Of a stretch of DNA of 64,000 nucleotides, positions 1,709 through 60,294 are shown piece by piece; position 1 is the stretch's first letter; the number at the start of each line of letters is the position of its first letter. The stretch comes from Naegleria gruberi. Lineage: Eukaryota. A program made the position numbers and the translations under genes. The notes beneath the pieces are model-generated. The model saw only the letters and a program-made list of their open reading frames with translations. It did not search any database and had not been told where the DNA came from. Location: the NCBI GenBank assembly GCA_000004985.1, contig GG738845.1; one strand, written 5' to 3'.

Positions 1709-3884
1709 TTAGTTACTAAGGGGTCTTATCAAATTGAGCAATGTTTTCACAGAATTAATTGTGAGTATGTTACAATCCTGTACTCGTGTTAGAAGACTGT
1801 TATCTTGAAACCTCTCTTGCATGGCTAGAATTAAATTGTAGTGAGTTTGGTATTTTTCAACTGTTGCCAAGTTTACACTCTCACTTTCATTTACTTGCAT
1901 TGGTTGAGTATTCGAGATGTAACCACATTTTTCTTTTTGATATTTCAAAAAATCCCATGCATTCTCTTGATTAAAGTTTTTGCTCTTTACATATTCATCA
2001 ACTATTGATAAAGTAGCCACCTCAACGTCACTAATAATCTTTGGTCTAGATTCTGTCAAAGTATTCTGAATTCTAAATAAACCAAAGTCTCTCTTTACAG
2101 ATGGATGGAAATTCCATTTTGTACCAGAAATTGCAACCATCAAACAAACATGGGCCATCCCCTCATAAGCATGTTTTTCCATGTTTTGACTTTTTTCTGA
2201 CTCTTTTTCTTCTTCGAACTTGAAAATTAAATTAATTCCAATTTTTGAAAGATTTGATAATAATTTTGAAGGATTAACCCATGTTTTTGTTATTTCTGCC
2301 AAAGAATCACTAAATGGAGAAAGGAGCTTACATTTATCCTTATTGATAAGGATAGTAATTTCCTCTATTGACTTAAACCCACTGTCTTGGTAATAATGTC
2401 TTGGACTAATTTTCAAAACAACAGCATCTCTCCCAAGAGAAGGAATAGGGAACAGTGTCCAATTTTCGAATGGCTTATCAAGATGTTTGTTCTTAATTGT
2501 TGTTAGAAATACATAATTTTTAAAACTTACATATACAACAGCTAGAGGACAGGTCAAATGGCTTGTTAAAAACCCTATTGTCTTTGACTCCAAGTCATAA
2601 AAAGTGTTTGCAATACCATCTGTTGACCAAATCTTTTCCTTTTCGTTCCACCATGCAATTGTTGGTTTATCTGACCTGAGCATGATGTTAGGAAGTGGAA
2701 TAACAACCTTGGCTGGTGGTCCCTCCACTTCTTGGTTTTCATTGTTGGTAATGGAATAAGCCTTTCGTTTGACATGGGTAGATAACTCTGTTATTTGTCT
2801 TATTTTCCATTCTTCGCAAGTGTTCACAATTGGTGGGATATGCACTATATCGATGGAAAAAACTCCTCCAATTACAATAAAGTTTTGAGGATGTGAAGAA
2901 GTAGAAGAATAAATGTCTTCCTTCAAGTACATTGCTCTAATTGCTATTTCTTGATATCCCATTCCTTTAATAGCCAATTCTACAATAACATTTAATTCGG
3001 GATATTCCACAAAACGAGTACTATTGGTAAAATGAATGTTATTGAGATATTAAAAAAATTACGTACAGATTTTTGGAAATATTGGTCCAAATGCCATACT
3101 TGATAAAAGGATGTACCTTTTGGTATTGGTCATTCTCAGAGGAAAGATACTTATCAAAATATTGCATAATATGAGCAGTAGCGTCATCCATTGTTTGAAC
3201 TATACAATTTGAAAGATAGTTCAAGTATTTTGTACAATGGGTTTCAAGATCTTTCTTGCTTTGTGCAATTGATTCGACTAATAAATATTCTATTTCATTC
3301 ATAACTTTACACCCTTCAACTACCATTGCAAAATCCTCGTTAATATTTCGTATTTCTTTTTTCAAAGCAAGCTCATTTAGATCACGCCATGAAGAAATAA
3401 AATTATTCATATCAACATCGTCATCAAGCTTTGGAAGATTTTCACAATTCACAAATTTGTTCCATTCGTCCTCTTCTTTAGCAACTATCATGAGAGTATG
3501 AAGCTTCTCTTTAAAGGAAGGGATAACTTCACTATCAAAAGATCCCTTTTCCTCATCCAATCTTTTTTTTTCCTCCTCTGCCTTCTTCCTTCTTTCCTCA
3601 TTAATTTTTCTCTCCTCTTCTTCCTTTCTTTTTCTTTCTTCTTCTTCCTCTTTCCTTATCCTTTCTTCCTCTTCTTTTCTTTGTTTTTCCTCTTCCTCCT
3701 TTTTCTTTTGTTCAAGTACTTTTTTTTGTTTAGCTGTTAGCTTTTCGCCTTTTTCTCCTTTTTCAGCCTTAGTTGATTTAGAGGATGATGGCTTGGACGG
3801 AGCCGATTGGTTTTTGGTTGGAGAGGCAGTTGTACTACTTTGTGTTTTTGCGCTTGTTGGTGGTTTAGGCGTGTTTCCTGGCAT
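1709..3884 (-). CDS. CASC1/IC97 (DNAI7)-like axonemal inner-arm dynein associated protein; 2 exons 3884..3067 and 3020..1709, about 709 aa
   Basis: ATG at 3884. N-terminal K/E-rich region then DEWNKFVNCENLPKLDDDVDMNNFISSWRD, collinear with the human CASC1 N-domain ([29 protein letters not shown]). A 46-nt intron (GTACGT...CAATAG, plus 3021-3066) joins the 281-aa ORF in phase 2 to the 433-aa ORF, which begins at GTG (not a real start). Total length matches human CASC1 (716 aa). Confidence 0.65.
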
Positions 3885-3900
3885 TTTTTTGATTTAACTT

Positions 3901-3914
3901 TTTGCCGCCCAAAA
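3901..3914 (-). promoter_or_regulatory. Palindromic-type GC box TTTGCCGCCCAAAA (reverse complement TTTTGGGCGGCAAA) 17-30 nt upstream of CASC1-like ATG (3884, minus strand)
   Basis: Variant of the E2F-like element; same 12-mer core as the 9511-9524 copy. Confidence 0.4.
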
Positions 3915-4011: not shown

Positions 4012-5985
4012 TTATTTTTGAGGTTTTCGATTGTCTTTTGTTTTTAGACCGGCCCTCTTTTTTGCTTGCTCGTTGAAAATATCCTCATACACAGGGATAG
4101 TATCCAAGGAATAGGATTCTGCTCTTACACTGATTTTGTTCGAGTAACTATTTCTATAAGATGAAACATCTTCGTCCTTTTCAACCTCAAACCCTTCATA
4201 AACATCGTTAAGGAATTCTTCCAACTCCTCGTTTGGTTCATCAAGAGTGTGTAATTTACGTTGCTGAACTTGGGCCAAAATATCCATTTCCACATCATTA
4301 CTCTCGGTTCTGGCAAGAAACATTGGTTCTTGTTGCTTCTTTTTCTTCAATCCTTTTACGATATTGCCACAATAAACTTCCTTGGCTTTGTATGTTAAGT
4401 GACTGCTAGTGTCTTCTTCTTCCAATTGTTGATTTGATGAGAAAGGATGAGACGGCTTTCCCCTGTCACTTGATGCTGTCATTGGTCTGCCCCCTACTGA
4501 GCTTGTTGTTGTTGGTCTTATCATAGATGAAGTTGTTGGTCTCATTTGAGATGTGGATGGTCTGAGACCAATTCTACTCTTTGACATGCTCCTAAATATG
4601 GAGGAAGAAGATGTGGAAGGTCTCCTAAAGAAGGAAGCAGATTGTGGTCTGCCTCCATCTAATCTTGGAGTTGATGTTGTTATATTTCGTATCATGTTAT
4701 TATCTGCAGGGTTATAAAGACGATTGCTAATTGTCAGAATTAAGGGGTTATCATTAAGGGTTTCATCCAAGGACTCCATTCTTGTAAATTTGATAGATTT
4801 TTTCAGCATTTCAAATTCATTTTCTAATTCCTCTAAAGAAGGGGTTTGCCCATCTTTTTTAATAGGACTAATACCTCTGTCGTCCATTTCATCCTCAATC
4901 AATGGTGAATCATCTAAATACTCCAATGTTTGGAGAGTACTCTTAACCATAGACCTATATCCAATCATTTTAACAACCAGTGGGTTACCTGATAAAGTTA
5001 AACTTGTTAGATGCTTGCAATCAGAAAGATAAATTAACTGTAACTCATCTTCAATATTATTTCCTTCCAAATCCAATACTTCCAATTCTTCCATTCCCGA
5101 TAGATCGGAAATGTCTTCAATGTCATTATAAGAAAGATATAATTCCTTCAATCGAGAGAATGTTGATATTCCATCCAATTCCCCAATGCCACATCTCGAT
5201 AACCATAAAATTCTTACAAACTTTAAACTTGTTCCAAGATCTCTTATGGAGGGAATTGTGCTTCCATTTAGTTTTAACTCTTCTAAATTGGGCAATTTGG
5301 AGCCAACATCACCAAGTGAATTTTTGGTTGTATTTACAATAATTTCGAGATGTTTTACATTGTTAAGGTTATCCTCGCCAGTTGCTGCCTTGAGCTTTGA
5401 CTCTGATAAGTACTCCTCCAGAGCTAGAAGATTAGGGTCAATTTCTTCAGAAGGTAACTCATTCAAATCAAAGGAAACAATAGATTTGACAAGACCAAGA
5501 GGAAGACTTGTACTAGGTATTGGTTTTAAATCATCGACTTCTGAGGTTCCTCTATACTCCACCCTCGCCTCTGTTTGTTTCCTTATGAACTCATCATCTT
5601 CATCGTCACCGTCGTTACTTAAAAGTGATGACACACTTTCTTCGGAAGGAGTTTCTATACTTTCATTGTCATCATACTTTTCATTGTCCTCTTTCTTTTT
5701 GATTTTTTTGCTATTCTTTGGGTTGCCCAAAACACTAACCATCTTTTTGTTTTCGATTGAGCCAGAACGTTTTGGCAAAATTGGATTTAGAGGCTCCACA
5801 ACTTTTTGTCTGACTGGTTTGCTTTGTAAGTCATCCTGAAGAGTTGTTCCCATATGTTTTAAAAGTCTATTTCTCGTAAAAGATGAAGCTGATTTTGTTT
5901 GTTCCACAGAAAAATCAGAATGAATAACTTTACTGCCTCCTTCAAACTCCTTCCGATAGGAAGACTCTAAAGATTTGTTCAACAT
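4012..5985 (-). CDS. Leucine-rich repeat protein, SDS22-type LRRs plus LRRcap (DNAAF1/LRRC56/LRRC6-like); disordered N- and S/T/R-rich C-terminal regions
   Basis: 657-aa ORF, ATG at 5985. Central LxxLxLxxNxIxxI repeats (LEELKLNGSTI...LKELYLSYNDIEDISDL...LEVLDLEGNNIED) followed by GNPLVVKMIGYRSMVKSTLQTLEYLDD, which resembles the LRRcap of DNAAF1 (GNPVIRQIPNYRRTV...LTYLDD). Confidence 0.6.
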   Translation of the reverse strand: MLNKSLESSYRKEFEGGSKVIHSDFSVEQTKSASSFTRNRLLKHMGTTLQDDLQSKPVRQKVVEPLNPILPKRSGSIENKKMVSVLGNPKNSKKIKKKEDNEKYDDNESIETPSEESVSSLLSNDGDDEDDEFIRKQTEARVEYRGTSEVDDLKPIPSTSLPLGLVKSIVSFDLNELPSEEIDPNLLALEEYLSESKLKAATGEDNLNNVKHLEIIVNTTKNSLGDVGSKLPNLEELKLNGSTIPSIRDLGTSLKFVRILWLSRCGIGELDGISTFSRLKELYLSYNDIEDISDLSGMEELEVLDLEGNNIEDELQLIYLSDCKHLTSLTLSGNPLVVKMIGYRSMVKSTLQTLEYLDDSPLIEDEMDDRGISPIKKDGQTPSLEELENEFEMLKKSIKFTRMESLDETLNDNPLILTISNRLYNPADNNMIRNITTSTPRLDGGRPQSASFFRRPSTSSSSIFRSMSKSRIGLRPSTSQMRPTTSSMIRPTTTSSVGGRPMTASSDRGKPSHPFSSNQQLEEEDTSSHLTYKAKEVYCGNIVKGLKKKKQQEPMFLARTESNDVEMDILAQVQQRKLHTLDEPNEELEEFLNDVYEGFEVEKDEDVSSYRNSYSNKISVRAESYSLDTIPVYEDIFNEQAKKRAGLKTKDNRKPQK

Positions 5986-6106: not shown

Positions 6107-6119
6107 AAAAGGCGGGAAG
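6107..6119 (+). promoter_or_regulatory. GC box AAAAGGCGGGAAG about 125 nt upstream of the LRR-protein gene (minus-strand ATG at 5985)
   Basis: Same GGCGGGAA core; it is the only GC-rich element in the 253-nt spacer. Confidence 0.4.
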
Positions 6120-7200: not shown

Positions 7201-9453
7201 TTATTTTGTACCTCTGTAGAACGTGTTTAACTCATCTTGAATCCTTTCTCTGTCCATATCCATTTGTTGAAGTAATACCTGAAGTCTCTGTATTTCATGT
7301 TTCAAATTTTTTTCTCTTTGTCTCAGTCTTGTTTGGGTTTCACTTTCTGTTAACAGTTGTTGTTCTTTCTCCTCTATCTTCCTTCTCATTTGTTTGAATT
7401 CTTGTTCCATATCAAATATTTTCTTCTCTAAGTCAGGGCTTCTCTTTTGTTGTTCCATTGTTAGAGATTTTGAAAGTTGATTATTCTTTGAAAGAGTATC
7501 ATTTAGTTGAAGTTTTAAATGTTCATTTTCTGCTTGGAGTATTCCTGTTTGCCTTCTCATGTTGGAATTCATATCTTGTAAATCAATAACTACATGTTGT
7601 GCAGTGGAAAGGTTTTTCAACATCTTCTCCTTCTCCTTATCAAATTCAACAAGAGCAATGGATTTTGAGTGAAGTTGGTCTGATAATTGGTCAATTTGTT
7701 GTTGGGATGATTTCAGTTTCATTATGAGGTGCTGATTTTCGTCATCTAAGTTTTTGGCTCTTGATGAAAGGTGTGCCAGCTCATTTGTTTTAAGTTCTAA
7801 CCTTGTTCTTGAATCTCCTAATTCTCTACTTAGCTCTTCAAATTTGTCTTTCAATGCGAGGTGATCCCTATTCAGAGATTTGTAATTGAACATTATGTCT
7901 TCAAACTCTCTATCCTTAATTTTTAATCTGTGCTCCATATCAATACAAACAGAAAACTTTTCCTCGAGTTTTTGTTTCATCTTGTCCATTTCTTCCACAG
8001 TTTTGTTTAGTTGTGTATGTAAAAATTGATTTTCTCCAGTTATTTGCTTTAAATCTTCTCCTGCATGCTCAATTTCCTTCGATTTGAATTCAAAGTCGTT
8101 CTTGAGTTTTGTGTACTCTTTTTGTATTATTTCCAGTTGCTCCTTTTGATTGGTAAGTAATCGGTCCTTTTCTTTTAGTTGCTGTAATTGTTGTTGAATT
8201 CCAAGTTCGATTTGATTCGATTTAGTTTTGATTTCCAAAAGTTCCTTGCCCAGCTCTGAATTCTTTTTTTCCAAAAAGGAAAGCCTTTCATCTTTTTCGT
8301 CTAATTCTGTACTCATAGCATCCTTGTTAGAGTCAATCTCCTTAATAATATTTCTTAGATTGTTTAAATGATTATCTTGGTCAAGTATTGTTTTTTCAAG
8401 ATTTGAAATCTTCACTTTGAACTCTTGTTCATTTACCAATTTTTCATGACTTCTATTATTCAACTTTTCAATTTCTTGTTGTAAAACTTCTATTCTTGAA
8501 CTTAAATGTTTGGATAAAGTTGTTAATTTGGAAACATCTCCTTCTTTTTGATATAAAATCTGTTGAGATTGATTAAGTTTATCCTTAAGGGATTGAACTA
8601 TTTCTTCATGTTGGCGGTTATGTTTGTTGAGATCAATAAATGATCTCTTAGTTTCACCCAAGTCGCGCATCAATTCATTCCTTTCTTTGGTAATAATAGT
8701 TAATTGTTGTTTCATATCCTTGTTTTCCTTTTGTAATTGTTCAAATCTCTCATGCTCTGCAGAAATATCACGAGCGGTATCTAATTGTTGCTGTAAAAAT
8801 TCGATTTGTTCTGTAAGGTTTTGTATTGTATTAACACTATTAGAATATTCCCTTTCAGATTTGATTACATCAACGGTTTTACCTCCTCTTTCGTTAACTA
8901 ATTTTGTTAATCTGTCTATTTCTCTTAAAAGTCTGTCATTTTCTTGTGTTAAAACATCTATTTTGGATTCTTTTAAATGGGATACAGTTTTTTTCAGTGT
9001 TTCGTTTTCATTTCTTAATTGATCATTTTGTATTTCTGTCATTTTCATTACATCCAACATTTGAGTTTTAAGACTGGATTGAAAAGGTTGGATTTCCAAT
9101 TGTTTAAGGTATTCGGAAAAAGAAGATTCAATCCTTTCTCTTCGATAGGCAGAGTCGGTTTCCTTGTTTGATGTTCCTGAATGGGAGAACCAAACATTTG
9201 TTTTTGACATATAATTTTCAAGTCTCTCTTTTACCTCCTCAACAGAATGTTCCATCTCCTGATTTCTTAATTCTAATTGTTGATTTGTATATAATAAAGA
9301 TTGATTTTGTTGAGAAAGCAACCGTATTTGATCAACATATTGAAGTGATTGTTGTTTGAAAGTATCCTCTCTTTTAATCATCATTTGATGAAGCTCATTG
9401 TTTTCTCGGGTGAGCCTCTTCTTATCCTCCATTAGAAGTTTGTATTCATCCAT
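7201..9453 (-). CDS. Long coiled-coil protein (about 750 aa), function unknown; candidate flagellar/basal-body protein
   Basis: Continuous heptad-rich ORF. The first ATG in good aaaaATG context is at 9453 (MDEYKLLMEDKK); the listed ORF begins at an upstream TTG. The promoter carries TTGGGCGGCAAAAG at 9511-9524. Confidence 0.6.
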   Translation of the reverse strand: MDEYKLLMEDKKRLTRENNELHQMMIKREDTFKQQSLQYVDQIRLLSQQNQSLLYTNQQLELRNQEMEHSVEEVKERLENYMSKTNVWFSHSGTSNKETDSAYRRERIESSFSEYLKQLEIQPFQSSLKTQMLDVMKMTEIQNDQLRNENETLKKTVSHLKESKIDVLTQENDRLLREIDRLTKLVNERGGKTVDVIKSEREYSNSVNTIQNLTEQIEFLQQQLDTARDISAEHERFEQLQKENKDMKQQLTIITKERNELMRDLGETKRSFIDLNKHNRQHEEIVQSLKDKLNQSQQILYQKEGDVSKLTTLSKHLSSRIEVLQQEIEKLNNRSHEKLVNEQEFKVKISNLEKTILDQDNHLNNLRNIIKEIDSNKDAMSTELDEKDERLSFLEKKNSELGKELLEIKTKSNQIELGIQQQLQQLKEKDRLLTNQKEQLEIIQKEYTKLKNDFEFKSKEIEHAGEDLKQITGENQFLHTQLNKTVEEMDKMKQKLEEKFSVCIDMEHRLKIKDREFEDIMFNYKSLNRDHLALKDKFEELSRELGDSRTRLELKTNELAHLSSRAKNLDDENQHLIMKLKSSQQQIDQLSDQLHSKSIALVEFDKEKEKMLKNLSTAQHVVIDLQDMNSNMRRQTGILQAENEHLKLQLNDTLSKNNQLSKSLTMEQQKRSPDLEKKIFDMEQEFKQMRRKIEEKEQQLLTESETQTRLRQREKNLKHEIQRLQVLLQQMDMDRERIQDELNTFYRGTK

Positions 9454-9510
9454 TTTTTTGTTGTTGGTGGCGCCATTTGTAATTGTGATTTTGTACAAAA
9501 CATTTAATAA

Positions 9511-9524
9511 TTGGGCGGCAAAAG
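9511..9524 (+). promoter_or_regulatory. Palindromic-type GC box TTGGGCGGCAAAAG about 60 nt upstream of the ATG (9453, minus strand) of the 750-aa coiled-coil gene
   Basis: Shares TTGGGCGGCAAA with the CASC1-like promoter copy. Confidence 0.4.
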
Positions 9525-9654
9525 TTTTACAAATGATTTTTAGATTGTTTATTGAGAAGCAGAATTAGGTGAAGAGCTAATTTGTCAATTAATTCATTCA
9601 TTACTGACAGTATGGGAGTTTCAAGGAAAAATTACAGAGTTGTTGTAGGGTAAG

Positions 9655-10147
9655 TTATTCAAGCTTATCCAAAAGTTGTAAACGGCTCAAAATAACTGGC
9701 TTGGCAGTTTCTTGTATTTCTCCTGCCATGTACATTTCATCAAGGATCATATATACCTGTTGTAATAATTGAAGAATTATATTTTGATGATCATCTGTTT
9801 AGTTAAATAAAAAAGCTTACCTTGTGGAAGTTAAAAACTAAATCCAATTCGCAAACATTTCCAAAGAATTGATCCAAAACTTCTACAAAAAGATGAACAG
9901 ATTCAAGACAAGCAAGATCATTATCATTAACATCAACTCCCATACTAAAGTATAATCCGGCATATCTACGATAAACAACTTTGTATTTACGGAATTCAAC
10001 CATGTTGGTAAATTTTTGGTCTCTTGATGTGATTAAACGATGTACTTCGATTTTTATCTTTTCCTTTTCATCATCCTCGAAGGCTTCATACCATTTGGAG
10101 AGACGAGTTTTACCAGCACGGTTTTGAAGAAGAATAAAGTGGATCAT
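9655..10147 (-). CDS. AP2S1: AP-2 complex sigma subunit (clathrin adaptor small chain), 142 aa; exons 10147..9821 and 9756..9655
   Basis: [20 protein letters not shown]...[14 protein letters not shown] is near-identical to sigma-2 adaptin. A 64-nt intron (GTAAGC...ACAACAG, plus 9757-9820) joins it in phase 0 to [33 protein letters not shown], matching the sigma-2 C-terminus. Total 142 aa, the canonical length. Confidence 0.85.
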
Positions 10148-10246: not shown

Positions 10247-12787
10247 TTAGAGTTCGTCTTTCTTTTCAGTTTCTTCTTGATTCACTTCTTCTGGTTGAGT
10301 TTCACTTTGAGGAGGTATGACAGTTTCATTCTTTTCTATTGTTGTTTCTGGTTTTGGTACAGGTTTTTTGGCCAAAATTAATGTACGTTCAGAAACCTTA
10401 CCACATTCTTTTTTAATTTCAGCTGCTAAAACTGTTGGAGCTTCAAAAAGGGGGAGCTTGTCTTGTTTGGAAATAGTATCACTTAAATACTTTTCTTTTT
10501 CTGTTATCAAATCTAAAAGTTCTTGTCTCTCTTCGTCAGTAATATGCTTTTGGTTATCTTTCATGTACTTAACAGCTTGATTGGTTACATTAAAAATATT
10601 TTTACAAAAACCAACAACTTCCTTTCTGGCTCTATGCTCCCTGTGTCTATCGTGGATTGGATTTGTAAAATCAGTAATAGTTCTGAGTTTTGTATTGTAA
10701 GTATCAACAACAGATTGATCCACAGTTCCTTCATCATAATTATCACTCAACCATACCTCCAATTCATCTAAAGCTTTGTTGATATTATTCTGTTCTGTAA
10801 CTGTAAAATATGGTTTAAATTCAGGATTGTCAAGAATCTTGTCTCTTGTACCATATAATGTTGCTTCTAATGTATTTCTGGCTGCAGAGATTTTTCTTTT
10901 TAAGGATTCATATTTTTCAACATTGTTAATCTTTTCTCTGGATGCTTTTAATTGTTCTGGAGTTAATTGTTTAACAAGAGATACCTCTGTCATTTTGAAA
11001 TCTAAATCAACTTTGGTAGTTTTAGTATCTTTTTTGTAGGTTGGTTCAGGTTTAGTTTCATTTGAACCATCCTTGATTGTATCGTTGGTTTCGACTCTAA
11101 CAGTAACTGTTTCTTCAAGAATAGCATTAACAGAATCTAATTCAACAAGGCCATATCTATTGAGTTTGAAAGTAGCCTTTACCTTTTTTTTCTTACCACG
11201 TTCATCCTCAAAAGTCCAATTAGACATTGTCTTTGTTACACCATTAATTTGATAAGTAGAAATAATAGAGTTTTCAGTAGTGTAAGATTTTGGAATGGAG
11301 TTTGGAGAATATTTCAATGTGATAGAAAAATCTTCCGTTCTTGGTACAGTAATTGTTTTCTTGGAATCAATTTCATCATTTGAATTAAATAAATTAATAT
11401 CCTTATCACTTCCAGATAGAGCAAAATTAATTTGATATGGAGTAATATCAACAAGTTTAAATGTTTTGACATGGAATGATGGAGAATTTGAAGCTCCAAA
11501 GAAACTTGCACCCATAGCAATTGCTTCATCTGCATTAAGACTATAACTCAAACTTAATTTGTTTGCAAATTTGGATAATCTTTCTTGAATTGCTGGAATT
11601 CTAGATGAACCTCCAGACATTTCAAAATAATCAATATCATCCATTGTTAAGTTGGCAGTTATAAGAGCTTCCTTGATTGGATCAACTAGTCTTAAAAGTA
11701 AACTCTCACTCAACTTTTCAAAATCTTCACGAGTAACTTTCATAGAGAGATCTCTGTCGTTATAAAGGCTTTCAATAGACAAGTGTGCTTCATTATTAGC
11801 GCTCAAGATATGTTTAAGTCTTTGAGCCTCTTCAACAAGTCTGGTTGCTGGTCTTTTTTCAACCCTTGGATCTTGCTTATACTTTTCTATGAATTTTTCA
11901 GCAAAATAGTTGGCCAAAACATTATCAAAATATGCTCCACCTAACTTTTCATCTGAAGCAACACCTAAAACCTTAATATTACCAAGACTATTCTTTTCCT
12001 TATTTTGAGAATATTCAACAACACTTACAGTTGTTGAAATGGATCCAATATCATAAAATAAAGTAATCATTCTTGGTTTTGTTAGCTCTTTGATGGTTTT
12101 AGTATTCTTAATACCATATTGTAAAGCAGTGGCAGCATGATCATGAATCAAAGCCAATACCTTAACGTTGGCAATAGATGCTGCGTCTAAAATGGCTTGT
12201 CTTTGTGAAATTGTAAAGAAATGTGGAATAGAAATTACAGTGTCAACAACTGGAGAACCTTTGCTGATATCATCCGCTAATTGTTTAATGTAGAGAAGAA
12301 TCATTGATAAAAGTTCCTCTGGACTATAAGAAACACTATTAGAAAATTTGACATCAATTGTTCCTCTTTCTTCATTCTTAACGAGTGATACTGGTACTTT
12401 CAATTCATTATAGCGTGTTAAAGTTTCATTCATTTCCAAATTATAATTCTTTCCCAATAGGAAATTCATGAAACGTAACATTTTTTCAGGGAAACGGGCT
12501 ACCATAGTATATGCAGCCTCTCCTACATATCTATCTTCATCTCTAAAACCGATAATATTTGAAGTTTTACGTTTAGATTGTTCATTTAGTACCAAATCGA
12601 TTGGAGAGCCTGATTTAGCAATGCCAATCTTCAACCACCTGGAACCAAGATCAATACCAATCAAAGGTCCTTGTTGGGAAGATGATATGAATAAACAAAC
12701 AATTAAAATCACAACCAAAATGGAATGGGTAATTATTTTGGATTTGTTGATACCTCCTCTTTGAGGTGGTAAAGAGTATCCGATCAT
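10247..12787 (-). CDS. ER-lumenal Hsp70-family chaperone, Grp170/HYOU1/Lhs1-like (846 aa)
   Basis: N-terminal signal-peptide-like hydrophobic segment, then IGIDLGSRWLKIG (Hsp70 phosphate-1 motif). Large Hsp110/Grp170-type C-terminal extension. C-terminus ends KDEL. Single exon, ATG at 12787. Confidence 0.8.
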   Translation of the reverse strand: MIGYSLPPQRGGINKSKIITHSILVVILIVCLFISSSQQGPLIGIDLGSRWLKIGIAKSGSPIDLVLNEQSKRKTSNIIGFRDEDRYVGEAAYTMVARFPEKMLRFMNFLLGKNYNLEMNETLTRYNELKVPVSLVKNEERGTIDVKFSNSVSYSPEELLSMILLYIKQLADDISKGSPVVDTVISIPHFFTISQRQAILDAASIANVKVLALIHDHAATALQYGIKNTKTIKELTKPRMITLFYDIGSISTTVSVVEYSQNKEKNSLGNIKVLGVASDEKLGGAYFDNVLANYFAEKFIEKYKQDPRVEKRPATRLVEEAQRLKHILSANNEAHLSIESLYNDRDLSMKVTREDFEKLSESLLLRLVDPIKEALITANLTMDDIDYFEMSGGSSRIPAIQERLSKFANKLSLSYSLNADEAIAMGASFFGASNSPSFHVKTFKLVDITPYQINFALSGSDKDINLFNSNDEIDSKKTITVPRTEDFSITLKYSPNSIPKSYTTENSIISTYQINGVTKTMSNWTFEDERGKKKKVKATFKLNRYGLVELDSVNAILEETVTVRVETNDTIKDGSNETKPEPTYKKDTKTTKVDLDFKMTEVSLVKQLTPEQLKASREKINNVEKYESLKRKISAARNTLEATLYGTRDKILDNPEFKPYFTVTEQNNINKALDELEVWLSDNYDEGTVDQSVVDTYNTKLRTITDFTNPIHDRHREHRARKEVVGFCKNIFNVTNQAVKYMKDNQKHITDEERQELLDLITEKEKYLSDTISKQDKLPLFEAPTVLAAEIKKECGKVSERTLILAKKPVPKPETTIEKNETVIPPQSETQPEEVNQEETEKKDEL

Positions 12788-13118
12788 TCTTTTTTTGAAA
12801 ATTACTATTGTCTAAAACTTTGAGTTTGTAATCGTTTCGGTGTTTGTATTGGTTCTTGTTGTATTTTTTTGATTTTTTGTTTTAAATTATCGGAAGGATT
12901 CCTTTGAGTGCTAATAAAACACGTGTTCGGGAAGACGTATTGTGTGGACTGGATTTTGTTTAGATTTTTTCATATTATGCTAGTCATTGCTACTAGCTAA
13001 CAACATTATAATTGTTGTTTTTAAATTTTAAATTGGACGAATTTATTATCTTACTAGTACAATATCAATACAAGTAATTTTCTTCTTATTACCTCCCAAA
13101 GTCACAAACAATTAAAAA

Positions 13119-22584: not shown

Positions 22585-22598
22585 TTTCCCGCCAAAAC
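22585..22598 (-). promoter_or_regulatory. E2F-like GC box TTTCCCGCCAAAAC (reverse complement GTTTTGGCGGGAAA), 35-48 nt upstream of BBS4 ATG
   Basis: Lies within the 55-nt spacer between the CCDC93 stop and the BBS4 start. It is a GC-rich island in AT-rich DNA. Confidence 0.5.
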
Positions 22599-22632
22599 CA
22601 CTACAATCCTACCAAAAATAAATACAAAAAAA

Positions 22633-36566: not shown

Positions 36567-38300
36567 TTATTCACTAATGACTATTGAATCAATACAAAAG
36601 AGAGCAGAATTAACATAGGAGGAAAGCAGGCATTGTACTTTAACAGGTATTGGGTCATCCTGATTGAGCTGGAGCAGAACATTTTCCTTGATAAAAGGAA
36701 TTTGGAATGGATCTAATAGCAATAGACGAGCACTTGCAGCATTGATGGATGTATTGATGGTAGTGTATTGTTTTGCATTTGAGTTTTCCATTCCTTCAGT
36801 GCTAAAATCAATAATTGGGTCAATTAAGTCTATGGATGTTGGAGAAAAGTTTACATGAATACGCATTGGAGGACATAAGTACAGCTTTAGGAACCCATTT
36901 TTTGTGTCATCTTGCAGTTTGGAATAAAGTGAAACTTCAATAACAAACTGCTTGGAATTTTCATTTTCTTGGAATGTATTTACATTTTGGAGATCGGTCA
37001 AGTTTGTGGCACACGACAGTTCAGATACAGAGCTCACTGACACAGGTGATGTGAGCTTGGATGGAATGCAAGAGCCATCTTCATCTATTTCATCATCTTG
37101 CTTAGCATTGGTACCTCGTGGAAAATGTCTAACATCTATTTCAAACTTTGACTTGGCATTTTTAAAAGCAATCAAAAACTTGGATTTGAGTTTTGTTGTA
37201 AGATGTTCTTGTAATGCATCATAAAAAGTCTGAGAGGAATTAAATGTTGATGCCAAAAGAACTTGTTTCATAAAATTTTTCATTGGAAATAGATCCTCCT
37301 CATATTTTCTTGATTTGTTTGGTTCCAATGACTGATAAATATCGGTAATTTTCCTCTTATTTGTTTGATTTGTTACGGAAATAAAATCATCAAAAGAAGG
37401 AAACCCAACTTCGGTATGTACAGTTTCACAGAATTGTTTCAGAACGTTCTCATTTTGAGATTTTCCTGAGAGATAGGTTTTTTCGAGATCATCTAGGATT
37501 TTAATATGTTCTAATTGCTTTGTTTTCAAAGTTACAGACAACTTTTCATATATGTGTGCAAGATTCTGTACAATCGTACTTAGTTGTTTTAAAACTTCAA
37601 TCTCTTCTTTAAATCTCCTAATAGGAGAAGTTTTAACTAAATTACTCATTGCTGCAGTTTCGTCCTTATTCTTTTCAAGAAATGCGTTATAATTATTTTG
37701 ATGATCAAAAAAATATTGTTTCAAGTTCTTTGTAATGATTTCTAATTGTTGTACTTTTTTATCCGCATCATTGTATCCTAAAACAGTGATAAACTTGTCT
37801 CTCTTTTCTTTGAATTTTTCCAATAATTGTTTAGCTGTCCCGTAGTCATGTCTTAATCTATCACATTCATGTTTGTTTTTAATTATTCCAATAAATGTGT
37901 CCCAAAATATTTGTGATTCATTAACTGGTTGTTGTGGTGTTTGTGTAGATTGTTGGCTATTTGATTGTTGTGTATTATTCTTCGGAGTCTGATTTGATTG
38001 TTGCTGTTGTATAGTGTGCTGATTTTGTTGAACAGTTGTTTCTTGTTGTGGAGGTTGCTGTGGACGATAGTGCTGCTCTGCATGATATGGAATATTTTGT
38101 AACTCTTGGATAAATACTTGTTTTGTTGGTGATGTGTTCCAAGCTTGAGTAACAAAATAAAGAGCAATCTGGTCCACAGTCTCCTTGGGAAATTTAGGAT
38201 TATTCTTGAAGAATTCGTGATTGGAGACAAGGGAAGTGGTGTAGGTAACAAATTTTTCTTGCTCTTCGGGGCGTACTTCACTGTGCCAAGGTTGAGACAT
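36567..38300 (-). CDS. Gln-rich nuclear-looking protein of unknown function (about 578 aa)
   Basis: ATG at 38300 (MSQPWHS); the listed ORF starts at an upstream GTG. Long Q/N/T-rich tract after an N-terminal globular part. No family assigned. Its stop lies 13 nt from the TFIIIC stop (convergent). Confidence 0.5.
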   Translation of the reverse strand: MSQPWHSEVRPEEQEKFVTYTTSLVSNHEFFKNNPKFPKETVDQIALYFVTQAWNTSPTKQVFIQELQNIPYHAEQHYRPQQPPQQETTVQQNQHTIQQQQSNQTPKNNTQQSNSQQSTQTPQQPVNESQIFWDTFIGIIKNKHECDRLRHDYGTAKQLLEKFKEKRDKFITVLGYNDADKKVQQLEIITKNLKQYFFDHQNNYNAFLEKNKDETAAMSNLVKTSPIRRFKEEIEVLKQLSTIVQNLAHIYEKLSVTLKTKQLEHIKILDDLEKTYLSGKSQNENVLKQFCETVHTEVGFPSFDDFISVTNQTNKRKITDIYQSLEPNKSRKYEEDLFPMKNFMKQVLLASTFNSSQTFYDALQEHLTTKLKSKFLIAFKNAKSKFEIDVRHFPRGTNAKQDDEIDEDGSCIPSKLTSPVSVSSVSELSCATNLTDLQNVNTFQENENSKQFVIEVSLYSKLQDDTKNGFLKLYLCPPMRIHVNFSPTSIDLIDPIIDFSTEGMENSNAKQYTTINTSINAASARLLLLDPFQIPFIKENVLLQLNQDDPIPVKVQCLLSSYVNSALFCIDSIVISE

Positions 38301-38358
38301 TTTCACAAGATGTCTTTTGAAGTATTTTTTTATTTTTGAAATTCTTTAAATAACCATT

Positions 38359-38372
38359 GTTCCCGCCAAATT
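38359..38372 (-). promoter_or_regulatory. E2F-like GC box GTTCCCGCCAAATT (reverse complement AATTTGGCGGGAAC), about 33 nt upstream of the ATG of coiled-coil gene 38403
   Basis: Same 11-mer core TTTGGCGGGAAC as the IFT52 copy. Confidence 0.45.
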
Positions 38373-38402
38373 CTACAATTAATAATTTTTAAAAAAAACA
38401 AC

Positions 38403-40770
38403 ATGAGCAACATTGGTGTGGCACGATCGTCTATAAATCTTGTTAGTCCTCTCACTCTATCTTCCCCTATCAATATTGGTGGTCCACAACTGGAAAGAGA
38501 TCAAAAACACTTCCCATTTTCAAGGAGTACCATGGATTTAAAAGAAGTGGAACGAAATAATAAGGATTTAGTTGTACCCTCAAACCGAACAGATGACCCT
38601 TTCAAGGATTTTCCTGCAACTACCGATGTATTATCATGCAAAACCAAAGTGAATGAATTAGAAGTACAAATAGAATATCTTAAAGACATAGGTATGTTTT
38701 ATTTAGTATTAAAACTGTTAATCAAAATTAAATAGTTCAAAGGTTGAGTGACGAAATGGCTAGGTATCAGGTAAAATATCCGCCAATTGTTTCAAGTGAT
38801 TCCGAAGGAGCTTGTTCTACGTTAATTGCTCCATGGTTTTACAACTCCCAACACATGAACCCTCTTCTTGTATCATACGATCACAGAATCATGGAATTAA
38901 CAAACGAAATTAAACTCTATAAGGAAAAAATTGAAACAATGACAATTGAAGTAAAAGCAGTGTCATCAGAAAATGAAGATCTTCAACATAGTTTGAAAAA
39001 TATGATTGAAAAACATCTGTCAAAACCCAATGAGCCAGGGTCTTCGATTCCTTTCAACATTCCTACTGAAGAATGGGACGAACTTCAACAGAGAGTTGAA
39101 CTATTAGACAGAGAAAACAAGTTGTTATTGGAGGAGCAAAGAGAGCTTCAAAATGAAATTGATCGATTGAGAAACGAAAATAGAAGACCATATGTTGAGT
39201 CATCATTATCTTCGACAGATTCTGATAGAACTCGTTTAATGCTGGAAAGTGCAAAAAAAAAAATTTCATCCTTGCAAAGAGAAAAAGAAGATTACCAAAG
39301 AGAGATTAAAAGGGCTAGGCATTTGGAATCTGTTGTTGGTGATTTAGAAAGAGCACTAAGTTCCAGTAATCAGAGATGTAAATTGTTGGATGAAGAATTA
39401 GAAAAACATAAATGCTTGATAGACGACTTGAATCATGAAAGAAAGCGATTTTTCCAAACAGAAAAAACCATCAATTACAAGGATATAGAGATGACAGGTT
39501 TGTTATTTACTTTCTTAATATTAGTTACAATTTGAAAGAACTTCGTGACAAGTTGACAATAGCACTCAGGGAAGGAGATGAAATAAGGGAAGAAAAAAAT
39601 AAGATTTTACATGAAATAAGCCAAATGGAGCAGAGAATAGTTGCTTACCAACAGAGTGAATTTGAAGCTTTACAAAAAGTGAAGGAAACTATGGAGTTAC
39701 TTGAAACAACAAAACTAGAAAGAGATACTGCTAGAACAGCTATAAAGAACAAAGAACAGGAAATTGAAAGGTTAGAAGAAAAGAATAAGAAGCTTTCTAA
39801 TGACTATTCTGAAAGGTTTAAAAAATTGTCTTCACATTTTCAAGAAAAACACAAGGAATCACTCCAAGCTTTGGAAGATCAACTAAAAATATTACAAATA
39901 GAGAATGGCCATTTAAAATCAGATGTAGACAGGTTAAAAAGAGAGAAAAAGTTAGTATTATTTTAAATATTATTCAAACACAATATTAGAACAACTGAGA
40001 ATGAGTTGACCAAGGTAATTAAGGCTGCCGAGACTGAGCAATTAAATTCACCATTTGTTGTTAATGATTTAAACCAACAGATTAACCATTTAACTAATGA
40101 GAGAGATGAATCAGAGAGGATGTACGAAAGATTAAGAAACTCTCATAGAAGAGCTCAACAACAATGGGAGCAGGAGCGAGAACAATTGAATGCAAGATAT
40201 CTTGAGTTACAAAAAAGAGTTTCATCAATTGAATCAGAATCCGAGGAACAAAGACAAAACAACATAAGATTAAACGAACAAATCAATAGACTTGAGCAAC
40301 AATGCCAAAATGTTAAGTTTGAAAAAGAAGAGGTTGAAAGATCATTGAAAGACTCGATACGAACCCAACAAGAACTTTCATCTCATGATACAAGAGATCT
40401 AAGGAAAAAGCTTGCTCTAACTTTAGAGGAATATAACAGAGCAGAAAACTCATTACACCAACTCAATATGAGACATCAAAAAGAACAATTGCAGTGGAGA
40501 GAAGAGTTTAGTAAGTTTAAGGAAAAAAAGGATAAGGAAGTACACGATTTGACATCAATTGTTGAGCAATTAACAAGAAGAAACCAAGAAATGGAGGGTA
40601 AAATCAAACTCCTTTTAAAGAAAGAAGAAGAACTTCTTAATCAAAAGAAAGACCTTCATATCAGAGCTGACAAGTTAACAATATATCTGGAGAGAATGAA
40701 AAGAGAAAGAGATATGCTCGCAAAACACATGGAAGGGAAGATTACAGATATTAGTTTTGGTTTTGAGTAG
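38403..40770 (+). CDS. Coiled-coil protein (about 747 aa), 4 exons 38403..38691, 38736..39497, 39539..39950, 39990..40770; candidate centriolar/flagellar protein
   Basis: Four ORF segments joined in phase by introns of 44, 41 and 39 nt (GTATGT..AATAG, GTTTGT..GAAAG, GTTAGT..ATTAG). Heptad-rich throughout. The promoter carries GTTCCCGCCAAATT at 38359-38372, about 33 nt upstream of the ATG. Confidence 0.6.
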
Positions 40771-60213: not shown

Positions 60214-60294
60214 CGCGGTCTACAGGATTCGAACCTGTGCGGGTCGCCCCAATTGATTTCTAGTCAATCACCTTAACCACTCGGTCAAGACCGC
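60214..60294 (-). tRNA. tRNA-Ser (anticodon AGA), long variable arm
   Basis: The minus-strand sequence GCGGTCTTGACCGAGTGGTTAAGGTGATTGACTAGAAATCAATTGGGGCGACCCGCACAGGTTCGAATCCTGTAGACCGCG folds as a cloverleaf. Anticodon loop CTAGAAA; T-loop GGTTCGAATCC; near-identical to metazoan tRNA-Ser-AGA. No intron. Confidence 0.9.

Follow-up and report, generated by a model that had tools for sequence, protein, structure and literature searches.

In vertebrates, RFX and FOXJ1 are the main drivers of axonemal and intraflagellar transport (IFT) genes. Naegleria has been known since the 1980s to induce its flagellar genes coordinately at the transcriptional level. E2F sites follow the consensus TTTSSCGC (GCGSSAAA on the other strand); Multicilin and GEMC1 are, to our knowledge, restricted to vertebrates. 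In multiciliated cells of Xenopus, E2f4/Dp1/Multicilin directly activates centriole-biogenesis genes including Cep135 (PMC4083089). E2F, DP and Rb families have been reported in Excavata and were inferred for the last eukaryotic common ancestor (PMC4862756), and a 2025 review reported RFX, FOXJ1 and XAP5 to be absent from Naegleria and the regulators of its cilium genes to be unidentified (PMC12183034). In literature searches, no promoter motif was found to have been described for the differentiation genes of Naegleria. Here we describe a GC-rich 13-mer, a candidate variant of an E2F-type box, which occurs twice in a 64-kb stretch of Naegleria gruberi contig GG738845.1 (the window): once upstream of the gene for IC97/CASC1, an intermediate chain of inner-arm dynein I1 (site 1), and once upstream of a gene for a coiled-coil protein of 750 amino acids (aa) (site 2).

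The 12-mer TTGGGCGGCAAA, which the initial annotation had located correctly at both promoters, has exactly two matches in the window when both strands are searched, also with one mismatch allowed (3901-3912 on the minus and 9511-9522 on the plus strand). Dinucleotide shuffling predicted a mean of 0.12 matches and none of 100 shuffles reached two. Identity between the two copies comprises as many as 13 nt, TTGGGCGGCAAAA, i.e. the 12-mer plus A (for coordinates of all features, see Table 1). The distances to the start codons agree with those given originally, and both copies indeed lie as GC-rich boxes in short AT-rich 5' gaps. The gap at site 1 measures 127 nt. The gap at site 2 measures 202 nt (9454-9655) and is bordered on the right by the 3' end of a gene for clathrin-adaptor sigma, encoded on the same strand, hence site 2 is situated between the 3' end of this gene and the promoter of the next one. 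The orientation of the copies had been overlooked. Both genes are encoded on the minus strand and the copies are therefore in opposite orientation relative to them; the sense strand reads TTGGGCGGCAAA at IC97/CASC1 and TTTGCCGCCCAA (as 13-mer TTTTGCCGCCCAA) at the 750-aa gene. An RNA-level element was also considered as a candidate and was rejected in view of this opposite orientation relative to transcription, which argues for a role at the DNA level.

The recurrence of the element is non-random, and taken by itself it is moderately strong evidence. Of the 1114 12-mers of the window that are GC-rich and contain CpG, three are found more than once, one of them as a coding-sequence coincidence (an unrelated GC-rich 13-mer at 38576 and 61117). 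The case was built on the location of the copies and on the family to which they belong.

The window is gene-dense, with about 33% G+C and few short introns, and the CpG observed/expected ratio of the genome is 0.41. The core GGCGG/CCGCC occurs 11 times in the 64 kb, and seven of these occurrences fall into 5' promoter gaps (binomial P = 1.5e-6; Markov-1 expectation 0.45). These gaps account for 6.6% of the window, and their G+C content is only 28.5%. When the core was extended to GGCGGSAR, seven matches were obtained, all of them restricted to promoter gaps (shuffle mean 0.51, maximum 3), and all seven boxes fit WWW-GGCGG-[G/C]A[A/G]. Apart from the two copies of the 13-mer, the family consists of the main form TTTGGCGGGAA (TTCCCGCCAAA on the opposite strand), found at 6111, 22586, 38360 and 53825, plus GGCGGGAG at 53768. 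Variant and main form have the GGCGG core in common and differ at two positions (TTgGGCGGcAA vs TTtGGCGGgAA), one of which is the position left free by the E2F consensus; the variant is also written as TTTGCCGCC, GGGCGGCAA or TTTGCCGCCCAA and the main form as TTTCCCGCC, GGCGGGAA or TTTCCCGCCAAA. This supports the proposal that the 13-mer is a variant of the same element rather than a separate one. The proposed contrast between a palindromic and a half-site form, on the other hand, fails because both forms are equally symmetric (TTGGGCGGCAAA and TTTGGCGGGAAA, 8/12 positions each). In the gaps of CASC1, BBS4, the coiled-coil gene starting at 38403 (g38403) and DRC12/IFT52, the CpG of the box is the sole CpG.

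A second recurring GC-rich 13-mer, TGTTCCCGCCAAA, is present in the g38403 promoter (38358-38370) and in the DRC12/IFT52 promoter (53822-53834) and is the main-form counterpart of the variant 13-mer. At BBS4 (22598-22606), g38403 (38372-38379) and IFT52 (53836-53844) a sense-strand (C/T)TACAA follows the GC box at a distance of 4-8 nt. TACAA was found in 7/7 box-bearing promoters vs 2/14 others, the copy in the promoter of the 750-aa gene being located at 9485-9491. Possible roles of TACAA are those of an initiator-like element or of a binding site for a partner factor.

As the initial annotation had proposed for an E2F-type promoter element, both copies of the 13-mer match TTTSSCGC, in the form of TTTGCCGC; the window contains four matches to this consensus in total (shuffle mean 1.0). 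TTTCCCGCCAAAA, the box upstream of BBS4, is a textbook E2F site. At site 2, TTTGCCGC is on the sense strand and begins at -69 from the ATG. At site 1 the TTTSSCGC reading is antisense to IC97/CASC1; this is the nearest to an ATG of all boxes and the sole box in a one-directional promoter with antisense TTTSSCGC. No TTYGAA was found at 4-nt spacing after any of the seven boxes in a test for CDE/CHR (DREAM) elements. The fourth TTTSSCGC match of the window (52654) lies inside the coding sequence of a small unlisted gene at 52622-52700 (plus strand), which looks PHF5A/SF3b-like.

The box family is associated with cilium and centriole genes. A box is present upstream of all five confidently assigned genes of this kind in the window (IC97/CASC1, BBS4, IFT52, DRC12 and the CEP135-like 750-aa gene) vs none of 13 housekeeping genes (Fisher P = 1.2e-4), and cell-cycle targets of the G1/S or replication type are not found among these five. 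BBS4 was identified via PDB entry 6xt9_D (1.8e-128) and IFT52 via Pfam (1.1e-68), whereas DRC12 was named from UniRef. The housekeeping genes of the window without an upstream box include TspO, adaptor sigma, HSP70-like, CCDC93, BCD1, FKBP and TFIIIC-like genes as well as BOP1, CDC73, triosephosphate isomerase, RIC1 and GCFC. That the two variant-bearing genes are axonemal or basal-body components, as had been considered plausible, is borne out for IC97/CASC1 by the Pfam domain Casc1_N and is consistent with the family assignment of the 750-aa gene given below. The public model of IC97/CASC1, NAEGRDRAFT_61231, comprises 281 aa (3039-3884, minus strand) and ends inside an unrecognised intron of ~46 nt (~3021-3066, GTACG...AATAG); the rest is encoded by a 433-aa open reading frame (ORF) at 1709-3010, and orthologues have 668-686 aa.

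Table 1. Positions in the window of the GC boxes and of genes carrying them, and of promoter blocks shared by CASC1 orthologues (positions in the respective loci); LRR, leucine-rich repeat
Feature	Position	Strand	Remarks
IC97/CASC1 gene, inner-arm dynein I1 intermediate chain	1709..3884	-	Two exons; Pfam Casc1_N 6.8e-41
Site 1, 13-mer TTGGGCGGCAAAA	3900..3912	-	Plus strand TTTTGCCGCCCAA, contains TTTGCCGC; 17 nt upstream of IC97/CASC1 ATG (3884)
LRR gene, 657 aa, SDS22 class	4012-5985	-	Box-bearing; only generic LRR matches
Main-form box GGCGGGAA	6111..6118	+	126 nt upstream of ATG of 657-aa LRR gene; sense strand TTCCCGCC
750-aa coiled-coil gene NAEGRDRAFT_77710, annotated hypothetical	7201..9453	-	CEP135/Bld10 family by sequence comparison, short member
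Second GC element GGCGCC, within GGTGGCGCCATTT	9469..9474	.	Same promoter as site 2, 16 nt upstream of ATG
Site 2, 13-mer TTGGGCGGCAAAA	9511..9523	+	58 nt upstream of ATG of 750-aa coiled-coil gene (9453, minus strand)
Main-form box TTTCCCGCCAAAA	22585..22597	+	36 nt upstream of BBS4 ATG (22633), in 55-nt intergenic gap
Main-form box TGTTCCCGCCAAA	38358..38370	+	~33 nt upstream of ATG (38403) of coiled-coil gene g38403
Box GGCGGGAG	53768..53775	+	In 140-nt divergent promoter of DRC12 (minus) and IFT52 (plus)
Main-form box TTTGGCGGGAACA	53822..53834	+	DRC12/IFT52 divergent promoter; GGCGGGAA core ends 26 nt before IFT52 ATG (53859)
Shared CASC1 promoter blocks	L002 9990-10003, ~9945-9965; L010 ~2620-2640, 2662-2678		N. 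lovaniensis (L002) and N. fowleri (L010)

Single-sequence Pfam and PDB searches with the 750-aa protein gave no match. A search of 1.8 billion representative proteins yielded 45 relatives, the best three of which (P0016-P0018) are full-length, with the N-terminal motif L-x-x-EN-x-x-LH in common; clear CEP135/Bld10 proteins are among the lower-ranking matches. The profile of this family matches CEP135 (PDB 7bji_A, E = 4.5e-7) through ENxRLxxENNxxH at the CEP135 N-terminus, and one of these lower-ranking relatives, P0022, which is itself CEP135 (match to the crystal fragment 7bji_A, 6e-41), can be aligned collinearly to the 750-aa protein over two segments (E = 3e-18 and 9e-5). Because of this profile match and the collinear alignment, the gene is classified by sequence as a short member of the CEP135/Bld10 centriole family and thus as a basal-body candidate; the extreme N-terminal CEP135 domain is missing from the protein. 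A hidden upstream exon in the 9454-9655 gap (short ORF MNELIDKLALHL..., with an in-frame splice) was considered and rejected, given the agreement of the annotated N-terminus MDEYKLLMEDKKRL with the one of P0016 (MNDEKESLRLENRRL). Besides the CpG of site 2, this gap has only one CpG, held by the GGCGCC element, so both CpGs of the gap are within GC elements.

To judge conservation of site 2, the loci of the four closest CEP135-like relatives (L006 to L009) were compared. In three of them the sole TTTSSCGC of the locus is located in the upstream gap: in L007 it is TTTGGCGCC (sense strand, -60 from the ATG; sole match in 3.4 kb), in L008 TTTCGCGC (sense strand, -64, with the ATG set at 2806 from the conserved N-terminal motif; sole match in 6.2 kb) and in L009 again TTTGGCGCC (sole match in 5.6 kb; shuffle expectation 0.03). 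The two sense-strand positions compare with -69 in N. gruberi. Since the background frequency of TTTSSCGC is only about 1 per 16 kb across seven loci from other species, we consider it very unlikely that two sense-strand matches would occur by chance in the same 10-nt-wide position (estimate 1e-4 or lower). Thus, CEP135-like genes of other protists also have an E2F-consensus site upstream, with its position and orientation preserved; site 2 is conserved as a sequence class, and the exact 13-mer is not. Two contigs of the ENA sample ERZ929261, labelled 'metagenome' (L004 and L005), are essentially identical to N. gruberi, with a 100% identical promoter and one of 750 residues different in the protein; L004 is uninformative on conservation because its promoter is identical.

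A site of this class was also found at a ciliary gene of Willaertia magna. The 22-kb locus of this species contains TTTSSCGC only once, as TTTGGCGCC, and this copy is located 80 nt upstream of the gene for MNS1/CFAP127, which was identified as a ciliary doublet inner protein via PDB entry 9cpc_5N (2.6e-41). TTTGGCGCC is followed there by a one-mismatch copy, TTTAGCGCCAA, and TTACAA (L003 19098-19104), a layout as at N. gruberi BBS4, IFT52 and g38403. Separately, the 10-mer GGCGCCATTT is common to the promoters of the N. gruberi CEP135-like gene (9469-9478), of its relative in L007 (628-637) and of Willaertia MNS1 (L003 19035-19044).

Altogether, we hold it to be somewhat more likely than not that the 13-mer is a variant of the E2F-type box and serves, independently of its orientation, as an E2F/DP-type site in a regulon of centriole and cilium genes in N. 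gruberi. A winged-helix E2F/DP-type factor would recognise the central CGC/GCG core together with a T/A-rich flank in either orientation and would act 17-130 nt upstream of the start codon, usually beside a TACAA element. The site would put the gene under a common centriole/cilium programme that is switched on in the amoeba-to-flagellate differentiation, or kept off in growing amoebae. The membership of the factor in the E2F family, its activating or repressing effect and the link to differentiation timing are what we infer beyond the sites themselves. Several observations weigh against this interpretation. Among the four sequences that TTTSSCGC allows, TTTGCCGC is the least typical one, and an Sp1-like core, GGGCGG, is present in the variant box as well. 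No box is present at the p25-alpha gene or the kelch gene of the window, the ciliary role of which is uncertain. The 8.5-kb locus of the fourth CEP135-like relative, L006, contains no strict TTTSSCGC; one of its just two GGCGG is located at -45 (GGCGGC) and ATTGCCGA at -74. For site 1, the CASC1 orthologues in N. lovaniensis (L002), W. magna (L003), N. fowleri (L010) and the metagenomic contig L001 were compared, and neither GGCGG nor TTTSSCGC was found upstream of CASC1 in any of the four; in the N. lovaniensis locus both are absent from the entire 22 kb. Site 1 therefore appears to be specific to N. gruberi, and the expectation of the initial annotation that the element be conserved in orthologous promoters held at the CEP135-like gene and not at CASC1. 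The main limit is the small sample of one 64-kb window and nine short loci.

The peculiarities of the variant could alternatively be ascribed to a second GC-box factor, e.g. an Sp/KLF-like C2H2 zinc finger reading GGGCGG, which would govern a sub-regulon apart from the GGCGGGAA genes. GGGCGG is indeed present in the two variant copies only, the five main-form boxes having GGCGGG instead, and the 13-nt identity exceeds what an E2F core needs. We nevertheless regard a second factor as quite unlikely: the GGCGG core and the T/A flanks are shared with the main form, and of the two differences one affects the position that is free in E2F sites. The Sp1 decamer is (G/T)GGGCGG(G/A)(G/A)(C/T), and the flanks of the variant do not suit it; TGGGCGGCAA fits the core and fails at positions 8 and 10. 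Moreover, the CEP135-like relatives carry TTTGGCGCC or TTTCGCGC at the same place, which are E2F and not Sp1 sites. The suggested use of the variant as a marker of a separate gene class does not hold either, since one of the genes bearing it is axonemal and the other centriolar. An ordinary cell-cycle (G1/S) function of the sites, with the cilium association being a small-sample coincidence and the CEP135-like gene merely cell-cycle regulated, is unlikely in our view, even if the consensus is the classical cell-cycle E2F site and the conservation at CEP135-like genes comes from organisms without known biology. Division of Naegleria amoebae takes place without centrioles, and basal bodies are made only in differentiation (PMC4819266); for this reason IFT52, BBS4, DRC12 and IC97 have no known role in cycling amoebae. 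The contrast between the cilium/centriole and the housekeeping genes of the window and the position of the sole Willaertia site at the ciliary MNS1 gene likewise speak against it.

A generic core-promoter or start-site-associated element, or a bidirectional promoter module, without regulon specificity would account for the location of the boxes 17-130 nt from start codons, usually with the possibly initiator-like TACAA, and for the unit TTTGCCGCCCAAAACTACAG pointing away from the gene at CASC1. Such an element is very unlikely, given that at least 13 housekeeping promoters in the window have no GGCGG and that the promoter between the HSP70-like and the 2490-aa gene has five TACAA copies and no box. 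That the two copies are a functionless chance coincidence was already disfavoured and is hardly credible: an unrelated GC-rich 13-mer does recur in coding sequence and conservation of site 1 is lacking in four related species, but the shuffle statistics stand against it, as do the confinement of the boxes to promoter gaps, the core common to the family, the status of the box CpG as sole CpG and the E2F-class conservation at site 2.

Some further features of the CASC1 promoters were observed. Just two blocks, CCAAAAGTTTACGATTT (~-53) and TCGATCAAAAAAATG, are common to those of N. fowleri and N. lovaniensis. CCAAAAGTTTACGATTT is similar to GGCAAAAGTTTTAC, the A-rich sequence flanking the N. gruberi box on its 3' side, without the GC core, and the resemblance is weak. 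The A-rich flank CAAAAGTT, which is present in both copies of the 13-mer and in the CCAAAAGTTTACGATTT block, was considered and rejected; this likeness is weak evidence because the 8-mer is common in the window (14 occurrences). In N. lovaniensis, the CASC1 ATG is preceded at a distance of ~135 nt by TCGGGCTAGCCCGA, a perfect palindrome of 14 nt (L002 9857-9870), which was not seen in N. fowleri. A tRNA-like sequence is located directly upstream of Willaertia CASC1 (L003 ~9850-9920, minus strand); the window itself has a tRNA-Ser(AGA) gene at 60214-60294 (minus strand). The coiled-coil gene is not near CASC1 in the N. lovaniensis or Willaertia loci, and metagenome scans for CASC1 relatives, one of which used low-complexity patterns, gave no match.

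From the presence of a box, two further genes are predicted to be basal-body or flagellar genes: g38403 and the LRR gene at 4012-5985. In its repeat region (VRILWLSRCGIGELDGI...LEVLDLEGNNIED) the 657-aa LRR protein appears to resemble LRRC56/ODA8, to which it may correspond. A Naegleria LRRC56/ODA8 homologue ('Friggin') is reportedly induced early in differentiation (PMC4361367). PDB and Pfam searches gave no identity for g38403 or for the 577-aa gene at 36567-38300, and a database look-up returned no record for the gene of 788 aa with which the window ends on the right. In the divergent promoter of the HSP70-like gene (10247-12787, minus strand) and the 2490-aa gene, which holds the five TACAA copies mentioned above, CACGTG is followed by TTCGGGAA, fitting the heat-shock element pattern TTCnnGAA (12920-12936).

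Compared with described systems, the element is best viewed as a known type of site, E2F, in a putative new role and lineage and with an atypical variant sequence. E2F/DP sites of animal and plant G1/S promoters are alike in consensus, in proximal-promoter position (17 and 58 nt from the ATG here), in functioning in either orientation and in having a CpG core; two sites per promoter are possible, as in the DRC12/IFT52 gap and the gap of the CEP135-like gene. They differ in that the targets here are ciliary and centriolar structural genes of a protist that divides without centrioles, in that the binding factor is a putative one and in that TTTGCCGCC plus a C before the A-tract is atypical. The Sp1/KLF GC box (GGGGCGGGG) shares the GGGCGG core of the two variant copies and the AT-rich promoter around it; its flanks do not fit, the five sister boxes are without GGGCGG and orthologous positions carry E2F-type sites. 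The animal X-box/RFX and FOXJ1 regulon is similar in its use of a short promoter-proximal motif within ~150 nt of the ATG at functionally diverse cilium genes. The sequences are unrelated, however: in a test of both copies for GTNRCC-N(0-3)-RGYAAC no partner half of the inverted repeat was found, and only GGCAAA is like one half-site.

The E2F4/5-DP1-Multicilin (EDM) programme of vertebrate multiciliated cells (PMC4083089) resembles the situation in N. gruberi in that E2F sites are present at centriole genes including Cep135 and in that basal bodies are built outside the normal cell cycle; it differs in that the box described here is also found at IFT52, BBS4, DRC12 and IC97. A short, countable E2F-type box at centriole, IFT, BBSome and axonemal genes makes the regulation of Naegleria flagellar genes directly testable. 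The E2F site at CEP135-like genes of several protists hints at an old link between E2F and centrioles, as in vertebrate multiciliated cells. In a bolder version, which we put forward only tentatively and consider rather doubtful as a whole, E2F-type boxes would act as the master cis-code by which Naegleria and other heteroloboseans, lacking RFX, FOXJ1 and XAP5, assemble basal bodies and flagella de novo, and the wiring of E2F to centrioles would be ancestral to eukaryotes, re-used by vertebrate Multicilin-E2F4/5 and extended in Naegleria to IFT, BBSome and axonemal genes.

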